Of a DNA stretch of 28,155 nucleotides, positions 7,815 to 27,671 are shown piece by piece (the stretch's first letter is position 1; every line of letters begins with the position of its first letter). The notes beneath the pieces were generated by a model. The model saw nothing but the letters and a program-made list of their open reading frames with translations. It did not search any database and was not told the origin of the DNA. Origin of the DNA: Laspinema palackyanum D2b (GTDB lineage: Bacteria; Cyanobacteriota; Cyanobacteriia; Cyanobacteriales; Laspinemataceae). The stretch lies in the NCBI RefSeq assembly GCF_025370835.1, contig NZ_JAMXFE010000013.1; one strand, written 5' to 3'. The position numbers were made by a program, and so were the translations under genes.

Positions 7815-7865
7815 AACTGATACAGTCGCCCACCCCGGGAATCAAACCCGTTACAATTATAGATC

Positions 7866-7937
7866 TCTTGCAAAATACTACAGAGATCCCCCCAACCCCC
7901 CTTAATAAGGGGGGCTTTTTAGAATTGTCCAAGAGGG
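7866..7937. repeat. Palindromic dispersed repeat, copy 1 of 2 (R3). It has inverted ends CTCTTGCA.../...TGCAAGAG and a central C6-AA-C6-TTAATAA-G6 core.
   Basis: About 70 bp align with 25428..25499 with few mismatches. The ends are inverted repeats, which makes it MITE-like. Confidence 0.7.
7897..7921 (+). terminator. Rho-independent terminator (CCCCCC-TTAATAA-GGGGGG followed by CTTTTT) ending the operon at 1..7814.
   Basis: A 6-bp G/C stem is followed directly by a T-run, and it sits 80 nt after the lipoprotein stop. It is embedded in repeat R3. Confidence 0.6.
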
Positions 7938-7968
7938 GTATTATCCTCAACTTTAGGAGAACCAAACT

Positions 7969-8986: not shown

Positions 8987-10342
8987 ATGCGTCAACTTTT
9001 ATTAAAGGTGTCAATTGGGATGCTCGTCCTCATCTTGAGTGCGTGTGGTGGTGAACCGGAGACTCCGGAAGTCGTCGCCCCCGTCGAGCCATCTCCCCCA
9101 GCAGCGGAGACTCCACCGGAGTCCCCAGAAGCCGGAGAACAACCCGAATCCCCGGAATTTGAAAAACCTCTGGTGCCTCAGCGCCCGGATCCCACATCCA
9201 TTGGGAATTTAATTCCGCCAACCAGTCCAGATGAGCGAGTCCGGCAACTGGACCAGCAAAGGGCCCGACAGGCTCAGGAAAATCCCTTCGGGATCCTCGA
9301 TGTCCAGCCGGTGCCGGTCACTCCTGCACCGGGCGCAGCACCAGCAACTCCTAGAGTTCCGGAATTTCCAGGCCGTGCGGTTCCTGGTCTTCCGGAATTG
9401 CCGGTGGCGATCGGTCCACAATTACCCCCAGGTCAAGCAGTCGCCCAAGCTCAACCCTTTCAACCCTTCCCAGGACCAGGAGCAGGACCAGGAGCAGGAG
9501 CAGGACCAGGAGCAGGACCCGGAGCAGGACCAGGAGCAGGACCAGGACCAGGAGCAGGACCAGGAGCAGGCCGAGGAAATGGAACGGGACCGGGAGCCAG
9601 ACCGGGACCAGGGGGAGGGACTGGAAATGGAACGGGCCCGGGAGCCAGACCCGGAACGCCCGGTCCTCAAGGACCACAAATTCCCGACCTGGTTGGTCAA
9701 GGGGTTCCCTCCCTTCCCGATTTGCCGTTGGGAATTGGCCCAGAACAGCTACCTCCCAGACCGCGACCCCCCGCACAACAAGCGGCGGCGGGTCCACCGG
9801 CTCCCCCTCAACCCCCAACGCTTCCACCTTTAGTGGCGCGAGGGGTCCCAGGTCTTCCGGAACTGCCCCTGGGAATTGGTCCAGAACAACTGCCTCCGGT
9901 GGTCGCCCAGGCCCCTGCGGGTCCCCCTGCTCCGCCATCCCTTCCGCCTTTAGTGGCGCGAGGGGTCCCAGGTCTTCCGGAACTGCCCGTGGGAATTGGT
10001 CCAGAACAGCTTCCCCCTCCACCCCCACCGCCGGTTCCACCACCGCCACCTTCTACGGATTTAGCCCAAGGCACGGAAGTGACCGGGGTGATTCGAGCGG
10101 GGGGTCAAGTGCAAATTATTGTTAAGGCTCCCAATGAGGCCACTTCGCGCTATGTGAAGGTAGGCGATCGCATTGCTCTAGGGGAAGTGCTGGTTAAAGA
10201 GGTGCAAAATTTAGATTCCGCTGACCCGATTGTGATTTTGGAGCAAAATGGCGTTGAGGTCAGTAAAGCTCTGGGAGAACAAGTACCCCCAGAGGCTACT
10301 CCGGGTGGGGTTAACTTGGCTAATGCGGCTTTAGGACGTTAG
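8987..10342 (+). CDS. Proline-rich repetitive lipoprotein (451 aa) with a ~90-aa C-terminal beta domain, possibly PilP/GspC-HR-like.
   Basis: The N-terminus MRQLLLKVSIGMLVLILSACGG carries lipobox LSA-C. It has a (GPGAGA)n tract and four copies of GVPGLPELP(L/V)GIGPEQLPP. The C-terminus reads TGVIRAGGQVQIIVKAPNEATSRYVKVGDRIALGEVLVKEV...VILEQNGVEV. Confidence 0.7.
   Translation: MRQLLLKVSIGMLVLILSACGGEPETPEVVAPVEPSPPAAETPPESPEAGEQPESPEFEKPLVPQRPDPTSIGNLIPPTSPDERVRQLDQQRARQAQENPFGILDVQPVPVTPAPGAAPATPRVPEFPGRAVPGLPELPVAIGPQLPPGQAVAQAQPFQPFPGPGAGPGAGAGPGAGPGAGPGAGPGPGAGPGAGRGNGTGPGARPGPGGGTGNGTGPGARPGTPGPQGPQIPDLVGQGVPSLPDLPLGIGPEQLPPRPRPPAQQAAAGPPAPPQPPTLPPLVARGVPGLPELPLGIGPEQLPPVVAQAPAGPPAPPSLPPLVARGVPGLPELPVGIGPEQLPPPPPPPVPPPPPSTDLAQGTEVTGVIRAGGQVQIIVKAPNEATSRYVKVGDRIALGEVLVKEVQNLDSADPIVILEQNGVEVSKALGEQVPPEATPGGVNLANAALGR
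9470..9660 (+). repeat. In-frame hexa/dodecanucleotide simple repeat (CCAGGAGCAGGA)n, followed by two ~48-bp repeats. It encodes GPGAGA and GNGTGPGARPG tracts.
   Basis: Direct inspection of the sequence. Every unit is a multiple of 3 nt. Confidence 0.8.
9821..10020 (+). repeat. Near-identical 120-bp tandem duplication inside the proline-rich gene.
   Basis: 9821-9900 and 9941-10020 are about 90% identical. Both encode LPPLVARGVPGLPELP(L/V)GIGPEQLPP. Confidence 0.8.
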
Positions 10343-12632: not shown

Positions 12633-12904
12633 GTTTGTAGTAACGCCTTCAGGCGTTCTTAATTCAAGGGGATAACGAATGAATTCGTTACTACGAACAG
12701 GGGGGGATTTTGTATTCCAAGTTTGTAGTAACGACTTCAGTCGTTCTTAATTTACGGGGATAACGAATGAATTCGTTACTACGAACTCAGGTAATTTCCC
12801 CGTTTGTAGTAACGACTTTAGTCGTTCTTAATTCACGGAGAATAACGAATGAATTCGTTACTACGAACAGGAAGAAGATAACGCCTGAAGGCGTTACTAC
12901 GAAC
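12633..12904. mobile_element. Tandem array of three 66-bp MITE-like units, at 12633-12698, 12721-12786 and 12802-12868, plus an inverted solo end at 12880-12904. The terminal inverted repeats are GTTTGTAGTAAC/GTTACTAC(G/A)AAC. Each unit carries two AACGNN-TGAA/TTCA-NNCGTT hairpins.
   Basis: Direct repeats are visible with 22- and 15-nt spacers. The unit ends are reverse complements of each other. The array fills the convergent intergenic gap between the 12054 gene and the oxidoreductase. Confidence 0.8.
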
Positions 12905-12915
12905 TTTTTCTTTGT

Positions 12916-14076: not shown

Positions 14077-14132
14077 TTGTTGTTTGTCCTTTGTTGTTGG
14101 TCATTGGTGAGGAGACGAATGATGGGAGAGGG

Positions 14133-14189
14133 AACGACTGAAGTCGTTACTACGAACATAAGAGAACGACTGAAGTCGTTACTACAAAC
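14133..14189. repeat. Two solo hairpin-plus-TIR fragments, AACGACTGAAGTCGTTACTAC(G/A)AAC, at 14133-14157 and 14165-14189. They belong to the same MITE family as 12633..12904.
   Basis: The sequence is identical to the MITE right end. They sit in the oxidoreductase 5' region, about 60 nt upstream of its ATG. Confidence 0.75.
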
Positions 14190-14241
14190 ATCTCCCCCAT
14201 CCTCCCCATCTCCCCCATCCTCCCCATCTCCCAATTCTCCC
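14190..14241 (-). repeat. G-run simple repeat on the minus strand (GGGGAGATGGGGGAGGATGG...), with G-quadruplex potential. It lies in the oxidoreductase 5' UTR/promoter, just 3' of gshB.
   Basis: There are five or more runs of 4-5 G separated by 4-5 nt on the minus strand (CATCTCCCC/CATCCTCCCC on the plus strand). Confidence 0.6.
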
Positions 14242-15219
14242 CTATCTCTGCGCTACAAAACTCTCCACCCAGTCAATCACTTGATGCCCTAGGCGTTCAT
14301 CATTGGGAAGGTATTTATCAATTTCCCGAATCCCTGTGGGACTGGTGACATTGACTTCGGTTAAATAGCCTCCAATCACATCTAGGCCGACGAAATAGAG
14401 GCCATCTTCTCGGAGTTTCGGACCGACTTCAGCGCAGATTTGTCGTTCGCGATCGGTGATTTCTGTTTTGACGGCGAGACCGCCGACGGCCATATTCCCG
14501 CGAAATTCACTCCCGCTGGGAACCCGATTGACTGCGCCGATGGGTTCGCCATTGAGGAGGATAATGCGTTTATCTCCTTGTTTGGCTTCCGGGAGATAGG
14601 TTTGGACCATCACGGGTTCTTTGCCTTGTTTGGTACTAATTTCAATCAGGGAATTGAAGTTTTTATCTTCGGGGTCTAGGAATAAAATGCCTTCCCCAGC
14701 TTTTCCCCCTAATGGTTTGAGAACCGCTGCGCCTTTTCGGTCTAAAAAATCGCGAATAACGGCTTTACTTTGACTGACGATGGTTTCAGGAATGACCGAG
14801 GTAAATTGGAGGGCATACATTTTTTCATTGGCCGATCGCAGTCCGTTTGGGGAGTTGACGACGAGGGTTTTATCGGGGTCGATGTAATCGAGAATGTAGG
14901 TGGCGTAAAGATAGGGAATGGTAACGGGAGGGTCGGTTCGCATGAAGACGACATCCATTGCTTCGAGAGGATGGGAACCGTCCGGTTGGATTTGGTACCA
15001 GGGGTTTGCCGCTATCCAGCGATCGCCTGCGCGTTCGATGGGTTTGAGGGTCACTCGGTCGAGAATTGCCCAAGCTTTGCCATTCACGACGCTGAGTTGA
15101 TGCGCCTCAGTTATCCAAACCTCATGTCCTTTCGCTTGGGCGGATTCCATCAGCGCGACGCTGGTATCGTGGGTGGGATCTAGTTTTTGGATCGGATCGA
15201 TGATGAAGGCAAATTTCAC
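14242..15219 (-). CDS. gshB: Glutathione synthetase (prokaryotic ATP-grasp GshB), 325 aa.
   Basis: The N-terminus MKFAFIIDPIQKLDPTHDTS and the ATP-grasp motifs are visible. The length matches bacterial GshB. Confidence 0.9.
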   Translation of the reverse strand: MKFAFIIDPIQKLDPTHDTSVALMESAQAKGHEVWITEAHQLSVVNGKAWAILDRVTLKPIERAGDRWIAANPWYQIQPDGSHPLEAMDVVFMRTDPPVTIPYLYATYILDYIDPDKTLVVNSPNGLRSANEKMYALQFTSVIPETIVSQSKAVIRDFLDRKGAAVLKPLGGKAGEGILFLDPEDKNFNSLIEISTKQGKEPVMVQTYLPEAKQGDKRIILLNGEPIGAVNRVPSGSEFRGNMAVGGLAVKTEITDRERQICAEVGPKLREDGLYFVGLDVIGGYLTEVNVTSPTGIREIDKYLPNDERLGHQVIDWVESFVAQR

Positions 15220-20809: not shown

Positions 20810-21871
20810 ATGACTCTATCTTCTGAAGGCTCCTCACAACTTCAATCTGAAAAGCAACCTTGGATTGCAGTAATTTTATCACGAGTTATCCCAGGTATTG
20901 GGCAAATTTACGCCGGATATTTATTACGCGGGGTGATCATTTTTGCAGTTTGGAGCGGAAGTGCGATGATGGCCCTTTTGTCATTATTACAACCTGATAT
21001 TAATGGGGGGATTGTAGGGCTTGGATTGCTGATATATTTTGCTTTAGGCTTTTGGAATCTTTTTGACGCTCATTCCTCCGCAAGAAAGAGTAATAGCCCG
21101 CAATTTGAAACGTTACGAAAATCTAAAAAAGACCCTTGGTTGGCTGTTTTTCTTTCCCTGTTGATTCCGGGTTTGGGTCATTTCTACATTAAAAAAATAG
21201 GTGAAGGAATTATTTTTTTTATTGCTACGATAGTCGTTGCCATAATTGCACCTAAAATATTTGTGGGAATATTGCAATTTGGGGCCGCTTTCCATGTTTA
21301 TCAATTCATGAACAAGAGAAAAGACCTTTCTCAAGAGAAAACACCCTTACTCATTGGTTTATTCGTTATTGCTTCTCTGGTTGTATCAAGTGCAATATCT
21401 TCCATCGCCAGTTCTGCCCTTGAAACTCGCTATATACCCTCTGCCTCTATGATACCTACTTTGCAAATAAATGATCGCCTAATTGTTGATAAATTAACTT
21501 ATAAGTTTAATCTACCTGAACGGGGAGATATTATTCTTTTTTCGCCTACTCAATTTCTCCAAGAGCAAAATTTCACAGACCCTTTTATCTTCCGAATTAT
21601 CGGGTTACCTGGAGAAACAGTGGAAGTCATTAATGGACAAGTCAAGATTAATAATCAGCCTCTGGAAGAACCCTATATTGCTCAACCTCCCACCTATCAG
21701 TACGGACCCTCTACGGTTCCTGAAAATAATTATTTTGTGTTAGGAGATAACCGCAATAATAGCTATGATAGCCAATATTGGGGATTCGTTCCTAAAGAAA
21801 ACATTTTTGGAAAAGCTCAGACAATATTTTGGCCCCTAGATAGGCGGGGACCGATTCAACAATTGCCCTAA
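20810..21871 (+). CDS. lepB: Signal peptidase I (LepB) catalytic domain fused to a ~190-aa N-terminal extension. The extension contains a tandemly duplicated 2-TM module, W(I/L)AVxLSxxIPGxGQ(I/F)Y. Total 353 aa.
   Basis: The C-terminal half has S-box SMIPTL, GDIILF, GLPGETVEV and GDNRNNSYDSQYWGFVP. The N-terminal half has two homologous hydrophobic modules (PWIAVILSRVIPGIGQIYAGYLLRG and PWLAVFLSLLIPGLGHFYIKKIGEG). Confidence 0.8.
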   Translation: MTLSSEGSSQLQSEKQPWIAVILSRVIPGIGQIYAGYLLRGVIIFAVWSGSAMMALLSLLQPDINGGIVGLGLLIYFALGFWNLFDAHSSARKSNSPQFETLRKSKKDPWLAVFLSLLIPGLGHFYIKKIGEGIIFFIATIVVAIIAPKIFVGILQFGAAFHVYQFMNKRKDLSQEKTPLLIGLFVIASLVVSSAISSIASSALETRYIPSASMIPTLQINDRLIVDKLTYKFNLPERGDIILFSPTQFLQEQNFTDPFIFRIIGLPGETVEVINGQVKINNQPLEEPYIAQPPTYQYGPSTVPENNYFVLGDNRNNSYDSQYWGFVPKENIFGKAQTIFWPLDRRGPIQQLP

Positions 21872-21903
21872 CCCGATTATCCAAACCAAATCATGAGAGC
21901 TAC

Positions 21904-21933
21904 GGGAGAGACGAAAAACTTCGCCTCTCTCCC
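21904..21933 (+). terminator. Hairpin GGGAGAGA-N14-TCTCTCCC after lepB. It is a possible terminator, but no T-run follows.
   Basis: An 8-bp stem 33 nt after the lepB stop. Confidence 0.35.
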
Positions 21934-21948
21934 TTCCCTACATCCGGA

Positions 21949-21973
21949 AACGACTGAAGTCGTTACTACGAAC
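21949..21973. repeat. Solo MITE end AACGACTGAAGTCGTTACTACGAAC. It overlaps the last three codons and the stop of the Cry-DASH gene.
   Basis: Identical to the 14133 copy. The CDS stop codon at 21966-21968 lies inside the element. Confidence 0.75.
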
Positions 21974-23432
21974 GTTTTAATGCCGCTTTATACACCTGCT
22001 CATTTATTTTTGCAGACTCAAACAAATCAACCATAGGATGGGGATAATCCTTGCCAATTTTCACCCCAAACCGCTGCTGTTCCACTTCCAATAATTTCCA
22101 AGGTTCATGCACTTTAGCTGCCGAAACTGCTGCCAACTCGGGTAACCAATACTTGACATACTCCCCATCGGGGTCATAATCTTTGGATTGCTTGATAATA
22201 TTAAAAAAGCGAAACCCCCGGGCATCATTCCCCACCCCAGCGGTGTAATTCCAATTTCCCCAATTGCTACAAACATCATAATCAATCAGCATAGACTCAA
22301 ACCATTCTGCTCCCTTATGCCAATTGATGCCGAGGTTTTTCGTTAGGAAACTGGCGACGTTTTGTCTGCCTCGATTGGACATGAATCCAGTTGCTGCCAG
22401 TTCGCGCATATTGGCATCTACGAGGGGGAATCCGGTTTTTCCTTGTTGCCAGAGGGTGAATTTTTGCCAATCTTCTTGCCAGGGGATGGGGATTCCTTGT
22501 AATCCAGATTGCCGGAAGATGGCGTTGCCATGTTTGGCGCAGATGAATCGGAAGTAATCTCGCCAGAGTAACTCGAAAATTAGCCAATAGGTGGAGTCAT
22601 TTTTGATGCGTTGGGTTTCGTAGTCTTGGACTTGTTGATAAATGTAGCGGGGGGAGAGGCAACCCAAGGATAACCAGGGGGAAAATTTGGAGGAATAATC
22701 AGCGCCAAGCATTCCGTTGCGGGTTTCTTTGTAGGTTCGCAGGCGATCGCCACTCCAAAAATAGTCCTGCAATCGAGCAATTCCGGCACTTTCTCCTCCG
22801 GTAAAGGGGAGGACTGCTTTGGAGGCGATCGCAACTTTCTCCACCCCTAATTCCGTTAAGCTGGGTAAGTTCCCTGTCTCTATTTCCGGTAACGGTGGCA
22901 ACTGGGTAGGGGTGGGAAAGCAGGAATCTGGTGTGGCTGTTTTCTCGACTTGTTTGCGAAAGTGGGTGAACAATTCGGGAATATTGGGGATATCAAATGG
23001 GAGGCGATCGCAATGATAAAGCGTATGTCCCCAGAAGGATTTGAGTTCAATATTCAGGGATTTTACTGCTTGGGAGAGTGCCGTTTCTACCGCAATTTCT
23101 TCCGCTGTGACTTCCTGATGAAAATAAATCGCCGAGGCATTGACTTGTTGGGCGATTTGAGGTAAAATTGATTCAGGTTTTCCAATTTTAATAACTAAGT
23201 TGCTGCCAAGGTTTTGCAGGGATTGACACAGGTTCGCCACACTTTCGAGTAAAAACTGGGCGCGGAATGGGCCGGTTTTTGGAAACCCATAAGTAGTTTT
23301 AGAAAATTGTCTGGGATCGAAACAATAGATAGGAACAATTGGCGCATGATTTTGGATAGCGCGATGCAGGGGTTCGTGATCATGTACACGCAAGTCGTTA
23401 CGATACCAGAGGATAATCGGTTGGGATGTCAT
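21966..23432 (-). CDS. Cryptochrome DASH / class I CPD-photolyase-family flavoprotein, 488 aa from ATG 23432.
   Basis: MTSQPIILWYRNDLRVHDHEPLHRA is the canonical Cry-DASH N-terminus. The FAD-binding region is WRDYFRF...GxxNxxRxR...WGNWNYTAGVGNDAR. The track ORF extends 38 codons further into the MITE copies. Confidence 0.85.
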   Translation of the reverse strand: MTSQPIILWYRNDLRVHDHEPLHRAIQNHAPIVPIYCFDPRQFSKTTYGFPKTGPFRAQFLLESVANLCQSLQNLGSNLVIKIGKPESILPQIAQQVNASAIYFHQEVTAEEIAVETALSQAVKSLNIELKSFWGHTLYHCDRLPFDIPNIPELFTHFRKQVEKTATPDSCFPTPTQLPPLPEIETGNLPSLTELGVEKVAIASKAVLPFTGGESAGIARLQDYFWSGDRLRTYKETRNGMLGADYSSKFSPWLSLGCLSPRYIYQQVQDYETQRIKNDSTYWLIFELLWRDYFRFICAKHGNAIFRQSGLQGIPIPWQEDWQKFTLWQQGKTGFPLVDANMRELAATGFMSNRGRQNVASFLTKNLGINWHKGAEWFESMLIDYDVCSNWGNWNYTAGVGNDARGFRFFNIIKQSKDYDPDGEYVKYWLPELAAVSAAKVHEPWKLLEVEQQRFGVKIGKDYPHPMVDLFESAKINEQVYKAALKRS

Positions 23433-23459
23433 GGGTTGTATATAAGAGTGACAACAAAC

Positions 23460-23579
23460 GTTTGTAGTGACTCCTTCAGGAGTCATCCGGATGCAACCCC
23501 TGAAGGGGTTACTACAAACGTTTGTAGTGACTCCTTCAGGAGTCATCCGGATGCAACCCCTGAAGGGGTTACTACAAAC
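23460..23579. mobile_element. Two tandem 60-bp MITE-like units, GTTTGTAGTGAC-TCCTTCAGGAGTCATCCGGATGCAACCCCTGAAGGGG-TTACTACAAAC. The TIRs are the same as at 12633 and the core is different. They lie 27 nt upstream of the Cry-DASH start, open in-frame, and each carries an ATG.
   Basis: 23460-23519 and 23520-23579 are identical. The period of 60 nt equals 20 codons. Each unit translates on the gene strand as MTPEGVTTNVC..., in frame with the Cry-DASH CDS. Confidence 0.8.
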
Positions 23580-23697
23580 GTTCCATCCTTTTCTAACGAA
23601 ACGCTAGAGGAATAGGGGCGGGTAATTGTATATTGATACAAAAAAAGGCAGTTAATTAAAACTGCCTTGACTGTAACAGACTGAAATGATGGATAAC

Positions 23698-25281
23698 CTA
23701 CCGACTGCTACCAATTGCCGGAGCTTCCATTGGTTCTCCTAACGCAACCGATGCGCCTTCCGCCAACGTTGGTACTGAGTTCCGCAATCTGGCAGTTAGC
23801 TGTACCGTGGTGGCATCATAGATTTGGGTGAGAATCTTGGGATATAAACCAATCCCAATAATCGGCACCAGCAGGCAAGCAATGATAAACACTTCCCGAG
23901 GTTCGGAATCAATCAGGGCTTCATGTTCGACTAATTCCTTATTCTCTGGTCCATATAGCATTTCTCGCAACATGGACAACAGATAAATCGGAGTGAGAAT
24001 GACCCCGACTGCCGCTAAGAAGACGATGACGACGCGGAAGGTTAGGCTGTAGGCATCGCTGGTGGCAAAACCAACAAACACCATTAATTCAGCCACAAAT
24101 CCACTCATTCCCGGCAACGCTAAGGAAGCTAAAGAACAGGTGGTCCACATGGCAAAGGACTTTTTCATCTTTTTGCCAATGCCGCCCATTTCATCCAGCA
24201 TCAGGGTATGGGTGCGATCGTAGGTTGCTCCCACCATGAAGAACAAACTCGCCCCAATTAGTCCGTGAGAGACCATTTGTAAGACAGCCCCGCTTAATCC
24301 TAAATCGGTGAATGACCCAATCCCGATTAACACAAATCCCATGTGAGAAATGGAGGAATAGGCAATCTTCCGTTTGAGGTTGCGCTGTGCGAAAGAGGTA
24401 AGAGCGGCATAAATGATATTCACCACCCCGAGGATGACTAACATCGGTGCGAACACCGCGTGCGCGTCGGGTAACATTTGGGCATTCATGCGGATGATGG
24501 CGTATCCCCCCATCTTCAGCAGAATCCCGGCGAGTAACATATGCACTGGGGCGGTGGCTTCACCGTGAGCATCGGGTAACCAGGTATGCAGGGGGAAGAT
24601 GGGCAGTTTGACGCCGTAGGCAATTAAAAATGCTGCATAGAGCAACAGTTCTAAGTTAATGGCGTAATCCTTCGCCGCCAGGGACTGCATATCAAAGGTG
24701 ACGGTATCCCCGTAGAAGGCCATTGCGAGGCCCGCCAGCAGAATAAACAGGGAACCGCCTGCGGTGTAGAGGATAAATTTGGTGGCTGCATAGAGGCGTT
24801 TTTTACCGCCCCAGATGGAGAGCAGCAGGTACACCGGAATCAGTTCCAATTCCCACACCAGGAAGAACAAGAGCATATCCTGGACGGCAAAGACGGCGAT
24901 TTGTCCGCCATACATGGCCAAAATCAAGAAGAAAAAGAGTTTTGGCTTTAAGGTGACGGGCCAGGAGGCCAAGATTGCCAGGGTGGTGATAAATCCGGTG
25001 AGGATAATCAGGGGCATGGATAAGCCATCGGCCCCGACTGACCAGTTGAGGTCTAAGGCAGGCACCCAAGAATAGCTTTCAAAAAGCTGGATGTTGGGGT
25101 TGCTGAGGTCGTAATGATTACAGAAGGTGTAGACAATCAGGGCAAAGTCCATGAGTCCGACGATTAGGGCATACCAACGCACCGTGCGCCCATCTTTATC
25201 GGGGATAACAGGGATGAGTAGGGATGCCGCGATCGGAAACAGGATAATTGTAGTCAGCCAAGGAAATTCAGCCATGTTCAT
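23698..25281 (-). CDS. ndhD: NAD(P)H-quinone oxidoreductase subunit 4 (NdhD, NuoM-like), 527 aa. It is likely the D1-type paralogue.
   Basis: The N-terminus [27 protein letters not shown] is typical. It is a multi-TM antiporter-like subunit, and its length fits NdhD1/D2. Confidence 0.9.
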
Positions 25282-25427
25282 AGATCGCTATCAAAATTCA
25301 TCAAAAATACTAAATCCGGTCGTTAGTTAAAAGGCTTTTGCTCTGACGCCGCGCAGGCGGGCTTTGTCCGTATAGCCCCACCCTTGACGGGTGCGGGTTT
25401 TTATCCAACCGGATTGAGTAGGCCGAC

Positions 25428-25499
25428 CTCTTGCACAATTCCGGAGAGATCCCCCCAACCCCCCTTAAAAAGGGGGGCTTAAGAGAATTCTGCAAGAAG
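25428..25499. repeat. Palindromic dispersed repeat R3, copy 2, in the ndhF-ndhD spacer.
   Basis: It aligns with 7866..7937. The core is GAGATCCCCCCAACCCCCCTTAAAAAGGGGGGCTT. Confidence 0.7.
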
Positions 25500-25601
25500 T
25501 CTAGTATAGAAAACTCACCCGTCACACTACAGAAGCCAGAATTAACTCCGAGGCAAGGATGCTGGAATTCTGGCTTCTGCTTGGGCGACAGATGAATTGG
25601 G

Positions 25602-27671
25602 TTAAGTCACGCCGGAGAGAATGACTAAGCCGAGAACCGCCACAAAGACGATCAAGGCGTAGAATTGGGCGCGACCGTTTTCAAAGTATTTGAGTCCTTC
25701 GCCACTGATGACGGTAATCAACCCGGTGAGGTTGACGGCCCCATCAACGACGCGATAATCGACTTCCATCACCTGTCTGGCTAACCGGCGAGAACCGAGG
25801 ACAAACAGGGAGTTGTAGATTTCGTCAAAGTACCATTTCTTGCGAGAAAGCAAGTAGAGGGGTTTGATTTGGGAGGCGATCGCCTTCGGGTCGATTTTCC
25901 GACTCAAGTACATCAGGGATGCCAAGGTAATCCCAATCAACGCAATTCCCACGGAACTACCGCCCATGACCAAGAATTCGGTGAGGTTGAATTCTTCGGC
26001 GTGTTCGGCAATTTCCAGCATGGATTCACTGGGAGGGTGAATAAACTGCTCAAAGTAATTGGCAAAGGGAGTCCCCACCAACCCAATCAGGACCGAGGGC
26101 ACGGCCAGGGCCATCAACGGGAAGGTCATGCTCAGGGGGGACTCATGGGGATATTCGCTGTGGTGACCGTGAGAGTGGTCATCGTGGCTGGCTTCTAGTT
26201 CCCGAGGGTCCATTGCACCAGGACCAAAGGCGAGGATGGGTTCCCCGGCTTCGGCTTCGGTTTTGAGTTGGTGACGAATCTCGGTGTCGTTGCCTCGGAA
26301 GGGTCCTTCAAAGGTCATGAAGTACATCCGGAACATATAGAAGGCAGTCATCCCGGCAGTCAGCCAGCCGACGCCCCAGAGGGCAGGATTGGCTTCAAAG
26401 GCGGCCCCGAGGATTTCGTCTTTGGACCAGAATCCGGCAAAGGGCGGGATTCCACAAATGGCCAGGGTGCCGATCGCAAAAGTAATCGCGGTAATCGGCA
26501 TGAATTTCCGCAGTCCACCCATTAACCGCATATCTTGGGCCAGGGTGGGGTCATGACCCACCACTTCTTCCATGCCATGAATCACGGATCCAGACCCGAG
26601 AAACAGCATGGCTTTGAAGTAGGCATGGGTCATCAGGTGAAAGAGTCCGGCGCTGTAGGCCCCGATTCCCATTGCCATGACCATGTAACCCAATTGGGAC
26701 ATGGTGGAGTAGGCTAACCCTTTTTTGATGTCGGTTTGGGTGAGGGCGATCGTAGCCCCCAGGAAGGCGGTGAAACATCCGGTCCAGGCAATGACGGTCA
26801 TTGCGCTGGGGATATGTTCAAAGACGGGATACATCCGGGCGATTAAGAAGACTCCGGCAGCCACCATCGTGGCGGCGTGGATTAAAGCCGAGATGGGGGT
26901 GGGGCCTTCCATTGCGTCCGGTAGCCAGACGTGCAGGGGGAATTGAGCGGATTTGGCAACAGGTCCGAGAAAGACTAAGACGGCTAAGAGGGCTGCGACG
27001 CCTCCACCGATCGCCCCGGATTGGACGAGATCTTGCAGGCGATCGCCCATGATTTGAAAATCAAAACTATCCGTTGCCCAATATAAGCCCAACATCCCCA
27101 ACAGCAGACCAAAGTCGCCAACGCGGTTGGTGACAAAGGCTTTTTGACAAGCATCTGCTGCCGGTTTGCGATCGAACCAAAATCCGATCAGCAAATAGGA
27201 ACACATCCCAACGAGTTCCCAGAAGATATAAACCTGAACCAGGTTCGGACTGATCACCAGCCCCAACATTGAGGAGCTAAACAGGCTCAGATAGGTGTAA
27301 AAGCGCACATATCCGGGATCATGAGCCATGTAGCCATCGGTGTAAATCATCACCAACAGGGCCACGGTGGTCACGATCGCCAGCATCAGCGCCGAGAGGT
27401 GGTCAATGGTGTAACCCATTGTTAGGTGAAAATTCCCCGCCGCCGCCCATTCCAGACTGTACGTGTAGGGTTCATGGCCTTGGATTTGACTCCAGAGCAA
27501 GGCAAAGGACAAAACCATTGCTGCACCTACGGAGGAGACCAAGAATGCGGCAGTCGCTTGCCGCAGATTATTGGTCGTCTTGTTATAAGAAATCAGGCCC
27601 AGGCCGACCAGCATTGCCCCTAATAAAGGCAAAACTGGAATCAGCCAAGCATACTGATAAATTGGTTCCAT
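25602..27671 (-). CDS. ndhF: NAD(P)H-quinone oxidoreductase subunit 5 (NdhF, NuoL-like), 689 aa. The long C-terminal arm is present, so it is probably F1-type.
   Basis: The N-terminus MEPIYQYAWLIPVLPLLGA is typical. The length of ~690 aa is consistent with NdhF1 rather than the shorter CO2-uptake F3/F4 paralogues. Confidence 0.9.
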   Translation of the reverse strand: MEPIYQYAWLIPVLPLLGAMLVGLGLISYNKTTNNLRQATAAFLVSSVGAAMVLSFALLWSQIQGHEPYTYSLEWAAAGNFHLTMGYTIDHLSALMLAIVTTVALLVMIYTDGYMAHDPGYVRFYTYLSLFSSSMLGLVISPNLVQVYIFWELVGMCSYLLIGFWFDRKPAADACQKAFVTNRVGDFGLLLGMLGLYWATDSFDFQIMGDRLQDLVQSGAIGGGVAALLAVLVFLGPVAKSAQFPLHVWLPDAMEGPTPISALIHAATMVAAGVFLIARMYPVFEHIPSAMTVIAWTGCFTAFLGATIALTQTDIKKGLAYSTMSQLGYMVMAMGIGAYSAGLFHLMTHAYFKAMLFLGSGSVIHGMEEVVGHDPTLAQDMRLMGGLRKFMPITAITFAIGTLAICGIPPFAGFWSKDEILGAAFEANPALWGVGWLTAGMTAFYMFRMYFMTFEGPFRGNDTEIRHQLKTEAEAGEPILAFGPGAMDPRELEASHDDHSHGHHSEYPHESPLSMTFPLMALAVPSVLIGLVGTPFANYFEQFIHPPSESMLEIAEHAEEFNLTEFLVMGGSSVGIALIGITLASLMYLSRKIDPKAIASQIKPLYLLSRKKWYFDEIYNSLFVLGSRRLARQVMEVDYRVVDGAVNLTGLITVISGEGLKYFENGRAQFYALIVFVAVLGLVILSGVT

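Follow-up and report, generated by a model that had tools for sequence, protein, structure and literature searches.

The cry gene of Laspinema palackyanum D2b, which encodes a Cry-DASH protein, has copies of a short palindromic repeat at both of its ends, and this raises the question of whether the repeats have altered the protein. A preliminary description of the locus took them to be MITE copies that had rewired both ends of the gene, supplying in-frame start codons upstream and a stop codon downstream. We examined this proposal in the stretch of 28,155 nucleotides that surrounds cry (contig NZ_JAMXFE010000013.1; hereafter the window), in related genomes and in metagenomes. The clade set comprised eight genomes, namely this strain, strain D1 (L081), L001, L002, L003, L011, L017 and L082, with L004 as the outgroup.

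The Cry-DASH gene model

The Cry-DASH coding sequence lies at 21966..23432 on the minus strand and encodes a protein of 488 aa, from a conserved start (MTSQPIILWY, ATG at 23432-23430) to a TAG stop at 21966-21968. The product scored 616 bits against the NCBIfam model TIGR02765 (crypto_DASH), for which the cut-off is 317, with the profile match beginning at residue 6, and Pfam searches retrieved the domains DNA_photolyase and FAD_binding_7. The same frame is open further upstream, giving a long ORF of 526 aa (21966-23546) that begins MTPEGVTTNVCSNPFRGCIRMTPEGVTTNVCCHSYIQPMTSQ. Two ATGs, at 23546 and 23486, are in frame with cry in this region, and the first in-frame stop upstream of it is a TAG at 23606-23604. 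The 38 additional codons (23433..23546, minus strand) are encoded by a repeat array and are missing in every Cry-DASH orthologue compared. The closest orthologues are all 488 aa long with an identical start, and all eight clade orthologues share this length and the first methionine (MT[SAF]QPIILWY). Look-up of the exact 526-aa and 488-aa products returned no record from an index that does not hold the source genome. Annotation should follow the 488-aa protein as the correct model, the 526-aa ORF being a trap.

The repeats form a GTAG-tagged REP family

The repeat unit is 25 nt long and consists of GTTYGTAGT, a 6-bp stem, a TTCA loop of 4 nt and the complementary stem. The corresponding pattern, GTAGTRACNNNTKMANNNGTY, matched 14 times in the window, against 0.00 matches expected from 100 shuffles. 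These copies occupy four intergenic sites in 28 kb, and 19 copies were found in 21 kb of strain D1. The 6-bp stem was perfect in every one of the 14 window copies, with five variants among them, and GTAGT stood directly before the stem in each of these as well as in 19/19 copies of D1. When 34 units from the window and D1 (11 distinct sequences) were analyzed for covariation, four of the six stem pairs had changed on both sides, 100% of the cells were paired and none of 500 shuffles reached the score. A metagenome scan in which the stem bases were left unconstrained retrieved 129 matches, of which 83 were perfectly complementary, compared with about 1 in 128 by chance; nearly all of the perfectly complementary matches were head-to-head doublets. 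A directional GTAG tag, stem covariation and dispersed copies together rule out a tandem-repeat or CRISPR-like origin as well as simple chance. The 25-nt REP type also occurs well beyond the cyanobacteria.

The 5' end of cry is adjoined by a tandem array of two head-to-head REP doublets (23446..23582, units on both strands) with a period of 60 nt and 2.2 copies, which TRF detected across 23454-23582. Its full units lie at 23555-23579 (minus strand), 23520-23544 (plus), 23495-23519 (minus) and 23460-23484 (plus), and the linkers within the doublets, GCATCCGGAT, at 23545-23554 and 23485-23494. The two 60-nt units (23520-23579 and 23460-23519) are 100% identical. They are followed by a truncated fifth half-unit, GTTTGTTGTCACTC, at 23446-23459 (minus strand), so that only 13 nt separate the end of the array from the cry ATG. 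Two further clusters of the family are present in the window. One (12633..12906, unstranded) contains seven units, with doublets at periods of 82-88 nt, and the other (14129..14191, minus strand) contains two head-to-tail units at a spacing of 32 nt. In the doublets at 23460-23579 and 12633-12871 the units are arranged head to head with the GTAG tags outside, and tandem reiteration is present. The repeats thus show a short palindrome, an unpaired GTAG end, complementary stem subfamilies, head-to-head dimers and tandem clusters, and they are GTAG-tagged REPs in REPIN-like head-to-head doublets, not a MITE with demonstrated TIR and TSD. A search of the entire window against Rfam at gathering thresholds returned no family, and blastn of the 5' array against PLSDB plasmids gave no match.

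A solo unit at the 3' end of cry

At its other end, cry runs into a solo REP unit, GTTCGTAGT-AACGAC-TTCA-GTCGTT (21949..21973, minus strand), which bears out the earlier claim that one repeat family is found at both ends of the gene. The reading frame closes with AAA CGT TCG TAG (K-R-S-stop; the sequence at the stop is GTTCGTAG). The TAG at 21966-21968 is that of the GTAG tag, which is the source of the cry stop, and the REP hairpin begins 2 nt beyond it. The preliminary description had placed the K-R-S codons and the TAG within the element. This holds for part of the arginine codon, the serine and the stop. The lysine codon and the first base of the arginine codon fall outside, because the base before GTTY varies in the 14 window copies. 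The element part of the gene end is therefore only the GT of CGT, the serine codon and the stop, of which 1 2/3 codons are coding. The 8-mer TCCGGATG that adjoins the solo unit (21941..21948, minus strand) recurs as the linker in the 5' doublets, an indication that the solo copy is half a doublet. Further on, between the convergent genes cry and lepB, a GC-rich hairpin, GGGAGAGAGGCGAAG-TTTT-TCGTCTCTCCC (21904..21933, minus strand), forms in the RNA fold and is likely a terminator common to both genes.

The solo unit was detected in six of the eight clade genomes and occupies the identical position in L081, L082, L017, L011 and L002. As its carriers include both basal (L002, L011) and crown lineages, the insertion is old. 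Its position has been kept over ~10% nucleotide divergence and its stem is intact in all six carriers, and two relatives have TTAG in place of the GTAG tag.

It had also been proposed that the element defines the C-terminus of the protein, and the ends of orthologous genes argue against this. Distant Cry-DASH orthologues end ...AAL[KS]R(K/Q), the outgroup protein ends R-K-stop at 488 aa, and L001, a clade member without the element, ends K-R-V-TAA, also at 488 aa. Since K-R is ancestral and the length is unchanged, the element sets at most the last residue and the identity of the stop triplet, and not the position of the C-terminus. The orthologue comparison did not speak with one voice: in L003 the gene ends K-R-S-TAG although the hairpin is absent, and it is accordingly conceivable that GTTCNTAG pre-existed at the cry end and attracted the element. 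The TAG of the tag ends a long ORF in 5 of 123 family units, with equal or higher counts in control frames; stop donation as a family-wide habit was therefore dropped, and the donation at cry is not the norm of this REP family.

Turnover of the repeats among relatives

The doublet array is confined to this genome, being missing from the ndhD-cry spacer in all seven relatives. In L002 and L011 the site is empty, with only 23 nt from the ndhD terminator to the cry ATG, and in D1, L001, L003, L017 and L082 the spacer holds an unrelated repeat. A reciprocal case was found in strain D1, which diverges by 6% (nucleotide) from this strain in cry. Its ndhF-ndhD spacer carries a doublet array with the same stem pair, GACTCC/AACCCC, and none is present at that spacer in the window; the D1 array arrived within a block of ~190 nt with extra non-REP flanks. 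Cluster size differs as well, with 7 units here compared with 14 in D1. The presence or absence of arrays at the cry 5' site and, reciprocally, in the ndhF-ndhD spacer of D1 points to mobility within the lineage, and the REP family is mobile or unstable.

As a separate observation, rearrangement breakpoints at the REP were seen in the Laspinema lineage.

Both sets of repeats might have been kept because they are useful, the array, as a structured RNA or DNA element, insulating cry from ndhD read-through or tuning mRNA stability or translation, and the 3' REP acting as a selected regulator of the Cry-DASH level via stop-codon stalling. The array is predicted to form a very stable structure, the 3' unit has kept its position and stem as described above, and REPs less than 16 nt from a stop codon lower expression in E. 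coli (summarised in PMC12306157). However, the relatives do without the array, their site being empty or filled by unrelated inserts, and selection on the 5' array is too early to see, because it is known from a single genome with two identical copies. We regard such a role as unlikely.

Search for a transposase

Neither the window nor 21 kb of strain D1 yielded a Y1 transposase/RAYT or any other transposase, and tblastn with RAYT/IS200 probes retrieved nothing in the window, D1 or the orthologous loci. A RAYT or other transposase adjoining this REP type was likewise not found in 740 kb of REP-bearing metagenome loci. Among 120 such loci the probes matched in one only (L102), where both RAYTs have unrelated, GC-rich REPs on their flanks. 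A Kovacikia RAYT used as query retrieved many cyanobacterial 'REP-associated tyrosine transposases', none of them labelled Laspinema. At the two loci inspected, those of Kovacikia and Gloeocapsa, the RAYTs lie between copies of another REP, GTAGGATGCGTTA...TAACGCATC, which is absent from the window. No IS related to the REP units was found in these searches, and there was no clear target-site duplication at the two insertion polymorphisms examined.

These results bear on the view that the repeats are ends or remnants of classical MITEs, with TIR and target-site duplication, moved by a DDE transposase or palindrome-associated in the manner of IS200/IS605. The 60-nt doublet is itself an inverted repeat, the D1 array sits inside a larger block with non-REP flanks, and doublets in the metagenomes are often nested in larger palindromes, all of which could be expected of such elements. 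Yet the conserved module comprises 25 nt only, and its GTAG tag and compensatory stem are the signature of a REP, not of a TIR. Units occur solo and in head-to-tail pairs, with linkers of 10-40 nt, and neither a clear duplication at the two polymorphisms nor a nearby transposase was seen. A classical MITE is thus quite improbable here; of the earlier identification, the term 'miniature mobile element' can stand if taken loosely.

Start codons and RNA structure at the 5' end

The layout of the 5' end was correctly described at the outset: the two 60-bp units at 23460-23579 are stop-free in the frame of the gene, each carries an ATG, and the conserved start lies exactly 27 nt past the last full unit. 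On the coding strand, the cry frame is the sole open frame of the 60-nt unit. The opposite strand, which had been noted as open, is so in two of its three frames, but the total of 3/6 open frames compares with ~2.3/6 by chance ((61/64)^20 = 0.38 for a random 20-codon frame) and is at chance level. With only one frame open on the cry strand, the chance of its being in phase is ~1 in 3. The other array periods of the family, in this genome and in strain D1, are 32, 35, 61, 82 and 88 nt, none of which is a multiple of 3, and since the periods vary in this way the codon phasing of the 60-nt array looks accidental. The suggestion of an RPE-like coding palindrome is not sustained either, as the array lies upstream of the common start and the 3' unit contributes no more than 1 2/3 codons to the coding sequence.

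Prediction of the RNA fold, which had been put forward as a check, gave a single long hairpin (-101 kcal/mol, z = -9.8); within it the doublets are paired over their full length and both extra ATGs are buried. The predicted unpaired probability was 0.01 for the repeat-borne ATGs compared with 0.48 for the conserved ATG, and 0.07 compared with 0.65 for the respective initiation windows. Just upstream of the conserved ATG lies the motif TATATACAA (23436..23444, minus strand), which is retained, slightly altered, in each of the six clade genomes that have a spacer insert, whichever insert this is; the empty-site genomes L002 and L011 have TTTATAC in its place. This motif may serve as a -10 element or, alternatively, as an A/U-rich initiation region that lacks structure. 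A consensus promoter scan from the ndhD terminator to the cry ATG detected none. The terminator itself, an intrinsic-terminator-like hairpin with a T-run downstream of ndhD (23640..23668, minus strand), is kept in all relatives and stands directly upstream of the variable spacer.

The functional form of the rewiring proposal would have translation initiate at the repeat ATGs to give isoforms with N-terminal extensions of 20-38 aa, and the 3' insertion create a new C-terminus. Its appeal lies in the open frame with two ATGs in phase, in a TAG stop and last codon that are element sequence, in RPE insertions in Rickettsia, which have been named as a precedent, and in reports of proteins decorated with REP or RPE sequence, some of which are expressed (PMC3733652). 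Against it stand an extension present in this genome alone, at a site where seven relatives, whose proteins share the 488-aa length and start, have either nothing or a different insert; extra ATGs that are fully paired in a predicted hairpin of ~-100 kcal/mol; the 1 in 3 chance of phase and the array periods that are not multiples of 3; and a C-terminus of unchanged length with ancestral K-R. Use of the extra ATGs for initiation is very unlikely, and we consider the proposal as a whole highly improbable. Hardly credible is a version in which the array is co-transcribed with cry, for instance by ndhD read-through (proposed since a promoter would have just 23 nt available in the element-free relatives), conditional initiation at the repeat ATGs yields an extended isoform, which would need for example hairpin melting or helicase action, and the 3' REP throttles termination; if true, REPs would directly shape the protein and the expression of a cyanobacterial photoreceptor.

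Origin of the two gene ends

The explanation that we consider highly probable is that both ends of cry are copies of one GTAG-tagged REP family, the 3' copy being an old stop donor and the 5' array a recent arrival whose reading frame is a by-product. REP units, solo, as head-to-head doublets and as tandem clusters, would form unstable intergenic DNA in this Laspinema-type cyanobacterium. The 3' solo unit would date back at least to the common ancestor of the clade, abutting the ORF in such a way that GTAG gives the TAG stop and GTTC the last 1 2/3 codons while the protein keeps its length. At the 5' end, a 60-nt doublet appears to have undergone a recent, lineage-specific tandem duplication in the ndhD-cry spacer, a putative hot spot that holds other repeats or nothing in the relatives. 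The 38-codon extension arises from a period divisible by 3 (60 nt), a single open frame that is in the phase of cry and an ATG in the linker, and it would be a by-product of the doublet duplication. The conserved ATG, in an A/U-rich stretch free of structure, most probably remains the start of cry translation. If there is any transcription through the array, the extra ATGs would be held within a hairpin of very high stability. By extension from work in E. coli, the 3' REP hairpin probably stabilises the transcript at its 3' side and may also stall ribosomes. We infer that the unit spread by a REP-type, single-strand hairpin-dependent mechanism, for example through a RAYT-like tyrosine transposase, and that local tandem amplification followed.

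The main value of these findings lies in annotation and interpretation, in that the 488-aa model applies and the 'MITE' is better called a GTAG-type REP/REPIN. The locus is also a small, clean record of REP turnover, with an old stop-embedded solo copy, a very young doublet array and reciprocal polymorphisms. The current understanding of REPs and of Cry-DASH is unchanged.

Comparison with known systems

In size, hairpin and compensatory stems, the unit resembles the small dispersed repeats (SDR) of cyanobacteria as they have been described. SDR were reportedly described by Elhai et al. in 2008 (Genome Res 18:1484; cited in PMC3116915) in Nostocales, filamentous cyanobacteria, and are said to be hairpins of 21-27 nt with compensatory stems and evidence of mobility. 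A transposase is not known for the SDR.

The Rickettsia palindromic elements (RPEs), or 'translatable palindromes', are likewise palindromic, may have several open frames and may occur within annotated ORFs. However, RPEs lie in frame within conserved coding sequence and are expressed, whereas the present array is upstream of the conserved start.

The REPIN-RAYT system (Bertels and Rainey, 2011, PLoS Genet; PMC3116915) shares with this family the arrangement of two inverted REPs with a short spacer that form one long hairpin, and insertion polymorphism between close relatives. The doublet is the repeated unit in both, and here the GACTCC/AACCCC pair recurs at different loci in two strains. In contrast to REPINs, the doublet arms here carry different stem variants, many units are solo or head-to-tail, and no cognate RAYT was found in the window, the 21 kb of D1 or the 740 kb of metagenome loci.

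At the 3' end, the hairpin directly downstream of the stop, 2 nt away, is comparable to that of E. coli REPs within 15 nt of the stop codon. [quoted passage not shown] A difference is that the stop codon of cry is itself part of the REP tag. If REP hairpins 2 nt past a stop throttle translation in cyanobacteria as in E. coli, cry would be a convenient test case.

The closest description is that of the GTAG-tagged REPs, including the cyanobacterial families GTAG-12, -15 and -16, which have the same unpaired GTAG, 6-bp stem and complementary stem subfamilies, are mostly intergenic and near ORF 3' ends, and donate TAG stops (Di Nocera, De Gregorio and Rocco, 2013, BMC Genomics 14:522; PMC3733652). 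The present family differs in the conserved GTTY before the tag, and it is likened to them by class features, not by a numbered-family consensus, Laspinema lying outside the 2013 survey. [quoted passage not shown] Stop donation and the spurious 5' extension of an ORF by GTAG REPs are therefore already known, and what is seen at both ends of cry is ordinary REP behaviour.

Host locus and repeat unit

The window is cyanobacterial, with abundant HIP1 (GCGATCGC). Contig JAMXFF010000017 from Laspinema sp. D1 (locus L081) is collinear with it. On the minus strand the window carries ndhF (25602-27671), ndhD (23698-25281) and a photolyase-family gene, cry (21966-23432), which is convergent with the signal peptidase gene lepB (20810-21871). 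The 488-aa cry product scored 616 bits against TIGR02765 (cut-off 317 bits), the profile starting at residue 6, and cry is a bona fide DASH cryptochrome gene.

The preliminary description took the repeat at both ends of cry for a MITE. Its basic module is a 25-nt REP unit rather than a 60-bp MITE, in which GTTYGTAGT precedes a hairpin with a 6-bp stem and a TTCA loop, and a classical TIR/TSD MITE was not demonstrated. Fourteen units occur in the window, where shuffles predict 0.00: seven at 12633-12906, two head-to-tail at 14129-14191, a solo copy at 21949-21973 and four in the 5' array at 23460-23579, which has an additional truncated half-unit (23446-23459). All 14 stems are perfect despite five stem versions (AACGCC, AACGAA, AACGAC, AACCCC and GACTCC), and, in the GTAG orientation, 13 units have a TTCA loop and one has TTTA. 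In a set of 34 units (11 distinct sequences) drawn from the window and strain D1, both sides had changed in four of the six stem pairs with every cell paired, a covariation score reached by none of 500 shuffles. Rfam contained no family matching the unit. Units in the window are arranged as inverted doublets with GTAG tags outward, repeated in tandem. A 9-nt tandem repeat (CCCCATCTC-like, ~6 copies, 14189-14248) abuts the pair at 14129-14191, both lying between a GFO-family oxidoreductase gene and gshB.

The 5' array and the start codon

The two 60-mers upstream of cry (23520-23579 and 23460-23519) are identical, and the array duplication is therefore recent. As previously described, they are stop-free and carry in-frame ATGs (23546 and 23486), the nearest upstream in-frame stop being at 23606-23604; the resulting long ORF has 526 codons for amino acids, and its product would begin MTPEGVTTNVCSNPFRGCIRMTPEGVTTNVCCHSYIQPMTSQ. 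The array is also open on the opposite strand, in two of three frames, whereas on the coding strand only the cry frame is open. This had been likened to the translatable palindromes of some bacterial MITEs, but three open frames of six are unremarkable given the ~2.3 expected by chance for 20 random codons ((61/64)^20 ~0.38). Nor is the 20-codon period a property of the family, since its arrays have periods of 32, 35, 60, 61, 82 and 88 nt.

The proposal that these ATGs extend the N-terminus found no support in a comparison with seven close relatives (6-12% cry nucleotide divergence). In all seven, ndhD lies upstream of cry, and clade orthologues are uniformly 488 aa with a common conserved start methionine (MT[SAF]QPIILWY; ATG at 23432 in the window). 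REP doublets occupy the ndhD-cry spacer in the window only. In Phormidium pseudopriestleyi (L002) and L011, the basal pair of the clade, the cry ATG comes just 23 nt after the T-run of the ndhD terminator, and in D1, L001, L003, L017 and L082 an unrelated composite repeat takes up the spacer. Conservation is limited to the ndhD terminator and a TATATACAA motif beside the cry ATG, and a consensus promoter scan of the spacer found none. RNA folding, which the preliminary description had advised, predicted that the array region, if transcribed, forms a single long hairpin (-101 kcal/mol; shuffle mean -56.5; z = -9.8) in which both extra ATGs are paired (unpaired probability 0.01; initiation window 0.07). 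The conserved ATG is surrounded by A/U-rich sequence predicted to stay open (0.48 and 0.65, respectively). Our conclusion is that the upstream ORF extension arose as a by-product and that the correct gene model is the one of 488 aa.

The composite repeat (~170 nt, CCTCGTGACTTGGCTCTGCCGAG...CACAATTGGAGGCTCTGCCTCC...CCGTGTCACGGC; L081 9790-9985) also occurs in L002, downstream of the 3' REP, and had no match in the window with three mismatches allowed. Another repeat, GGCTATACGGACAAAGCCCGCCTGCGCGG, has a copy at 25349-25377; L003 and L017 carry it in the spacer 5' of cry, and the distant relative L007 directly after the cry stop.

The solo REP and the stop codon

cry ends AAA CGT TCG TAG, in which the TAG is that of the REP copy. 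The solo REP is present at the same position in D1, L082, L017, L011 and L002; found in both the basal pair and the clade crown, it predates the clade radiation. The preliminary description placed K-R-S and the stop within the element. The conserved REP starts at GTTY, the preceding base differing among copies, and so supplies only the GT of the Arg codon CGT, the codon after it (for Ser, or for Leu in L011) and the stop. The K-R pair is ancestral: orthologues at greater distance have ...AAL[KS]R at the end, often with one or two further residues, and the outgroup L004, likewise 488 aa, ends R-K-TAA. Of the claim that the element defines the C-terminus, what stands is that the solo REP determines at most which residue comes last and which stop triplet is used; where the protein ends is not set by it. 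Donation of a stop codon is infrequent in the family, five of 123 units ending an ORF of at least 100 codons.

The hairpin is absent from two clade members: L003 has K-R-S-TAG at its end, with GTTCCTAG and then unrelated DNA, and L001 has K-R-V-TAA. Because the gene downstream of cry differs in both L001 and L003, loss by rearrangement at the REP is the simplest reading. The downstream region is generally unstable, a rearrangement hot spot, with lepB following cry in only four of the eight clade genomes (window, D1, L082 and L011). The sites concerned are L003 5455-5480, L001 5455-5480 and window 21880-21975; the L003 breakpoint falls right after TAG, at the junction of REP tag and hairpin. 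In L002 and L011 (5464-5484 in each) the solo REP stem is identical and the loop inverted (TGAA vs TTCA); flipping of the hairpin or a pair of point mutations could account for this. Overall, the preliminary observation was confirmed and its interpretation supported in part.

Distribution and mobility of the REP family

Scanning metagenome contigs with stem bases unconstrained, we found perfectly complementary stems in 83 of 129 matches (chance ~1/128), nearly all in head-to-head doublets with 8-40-nt linkers. Most of these contigs have ~60% G+C and no HIP1; the 25-nt REP type thus ranges far wider than cyanobacteria. The unit is frequently exactly GTTCGTAGTAACGACTTCAGTCGTT, also as head-to-head doublets, and doublets are commonly nested within larger palindromes, for example GTCAATCAT...ATCATTGAC. 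That taxa so far apart share one REP type prompts the question of what enzyme acts in its recognition.

REPs would spread via a hairpin-recognising tyrosine transposase (RAYT). No cognate RAYT was found in the window, the D1 locus or the REP-bearing loci; the RAYTs of metagenome contig L102 are associated with other REPs. RAYTs are common among cyanobacteria, and the two loci inspected, in Kovacikia minuta pA (L203 1424-1452) and, with a frameshifted RAYT, on a Gloeocapsa PCC 7428 plasmid (L204 ~1385-1420 and 2140-2190), have on their flanks another type of GTAG REP, GTAGGATGCGTTA-loop-TAACGCATC, which is absent from the window.

The ndhF-ndhD spacer of D1 contains two doublets with the GACTCC/AACCCC stem pair of the window array but another linker, repeated every 61 nt; that of the window has no REP doublets. 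We suggest that doublets may travel within a larger unit. The D1 doublets lie in a ~190-nt block (L081 7944-8130), absent from the window, in which ~30 nt of non-REP sequence borders them at either end.

Other repeats were also noted. At 25425-25507 and 7862-7944 lies a repeat of 83-86 nt that has terminal inverted repeats (GACCTCTTGCA...TGCAAGAAGTC) around a CCCCCC/GGGGGG hairpin in its centre. Its copy in the ndhF-ndhD spacer is cleanly missing from that spacer in D1, a genuine insertion polymorphism of MITE-like type that has no relation to the REP family. Within a Pro/Gly-rich ORF lacking a Pfam match (8987-10342) there are tandem repeats of 6 and 18 nt (CCAGGA, 9470-9612) as well as diverged ~120-140-nt repeats (9657-10017).

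Likely function and comparison with known systems

The 3' REP hairpin begins 2 nt past the cry stop codon, and a second GC-rich hairpin (21904-21933) follows it between cry and lepB. In E. coli, REPs protect 3' ends and, when <16 nt from the stop, stall terminating ribosomes and lower expression (Liang 2015, via PMC12306157). By analogy, the 3' REP may protect the 3' end, stall ribosomes at the stop and lower expression. It is highly improbable that this cyanobacterial photoreceptor has an expressed isoform with an N-terminus encoded by REPs, or termination under REP control.

The window REPs share the anatomy of GTAG-tagged REPs (PMC3733652) and REPIN-type doublets (PMC3116915). Unlike an RPE-like coding palindrome, the cry array lies outside conserved coding sequence. 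Di Nocera et al. (2013; PMC3733652) reported that the TAG stop of flanking ORFs often derives from GTAG REP termini, that comparison with shorter homologues shows most REPs within annotated 5' ends of ORFs to be non-coding, and that tandemly reiterated head-to-head dimers are typical. The cry case agrees on all three points: TAG donation, non-coding 5' copies and tandem dimers.
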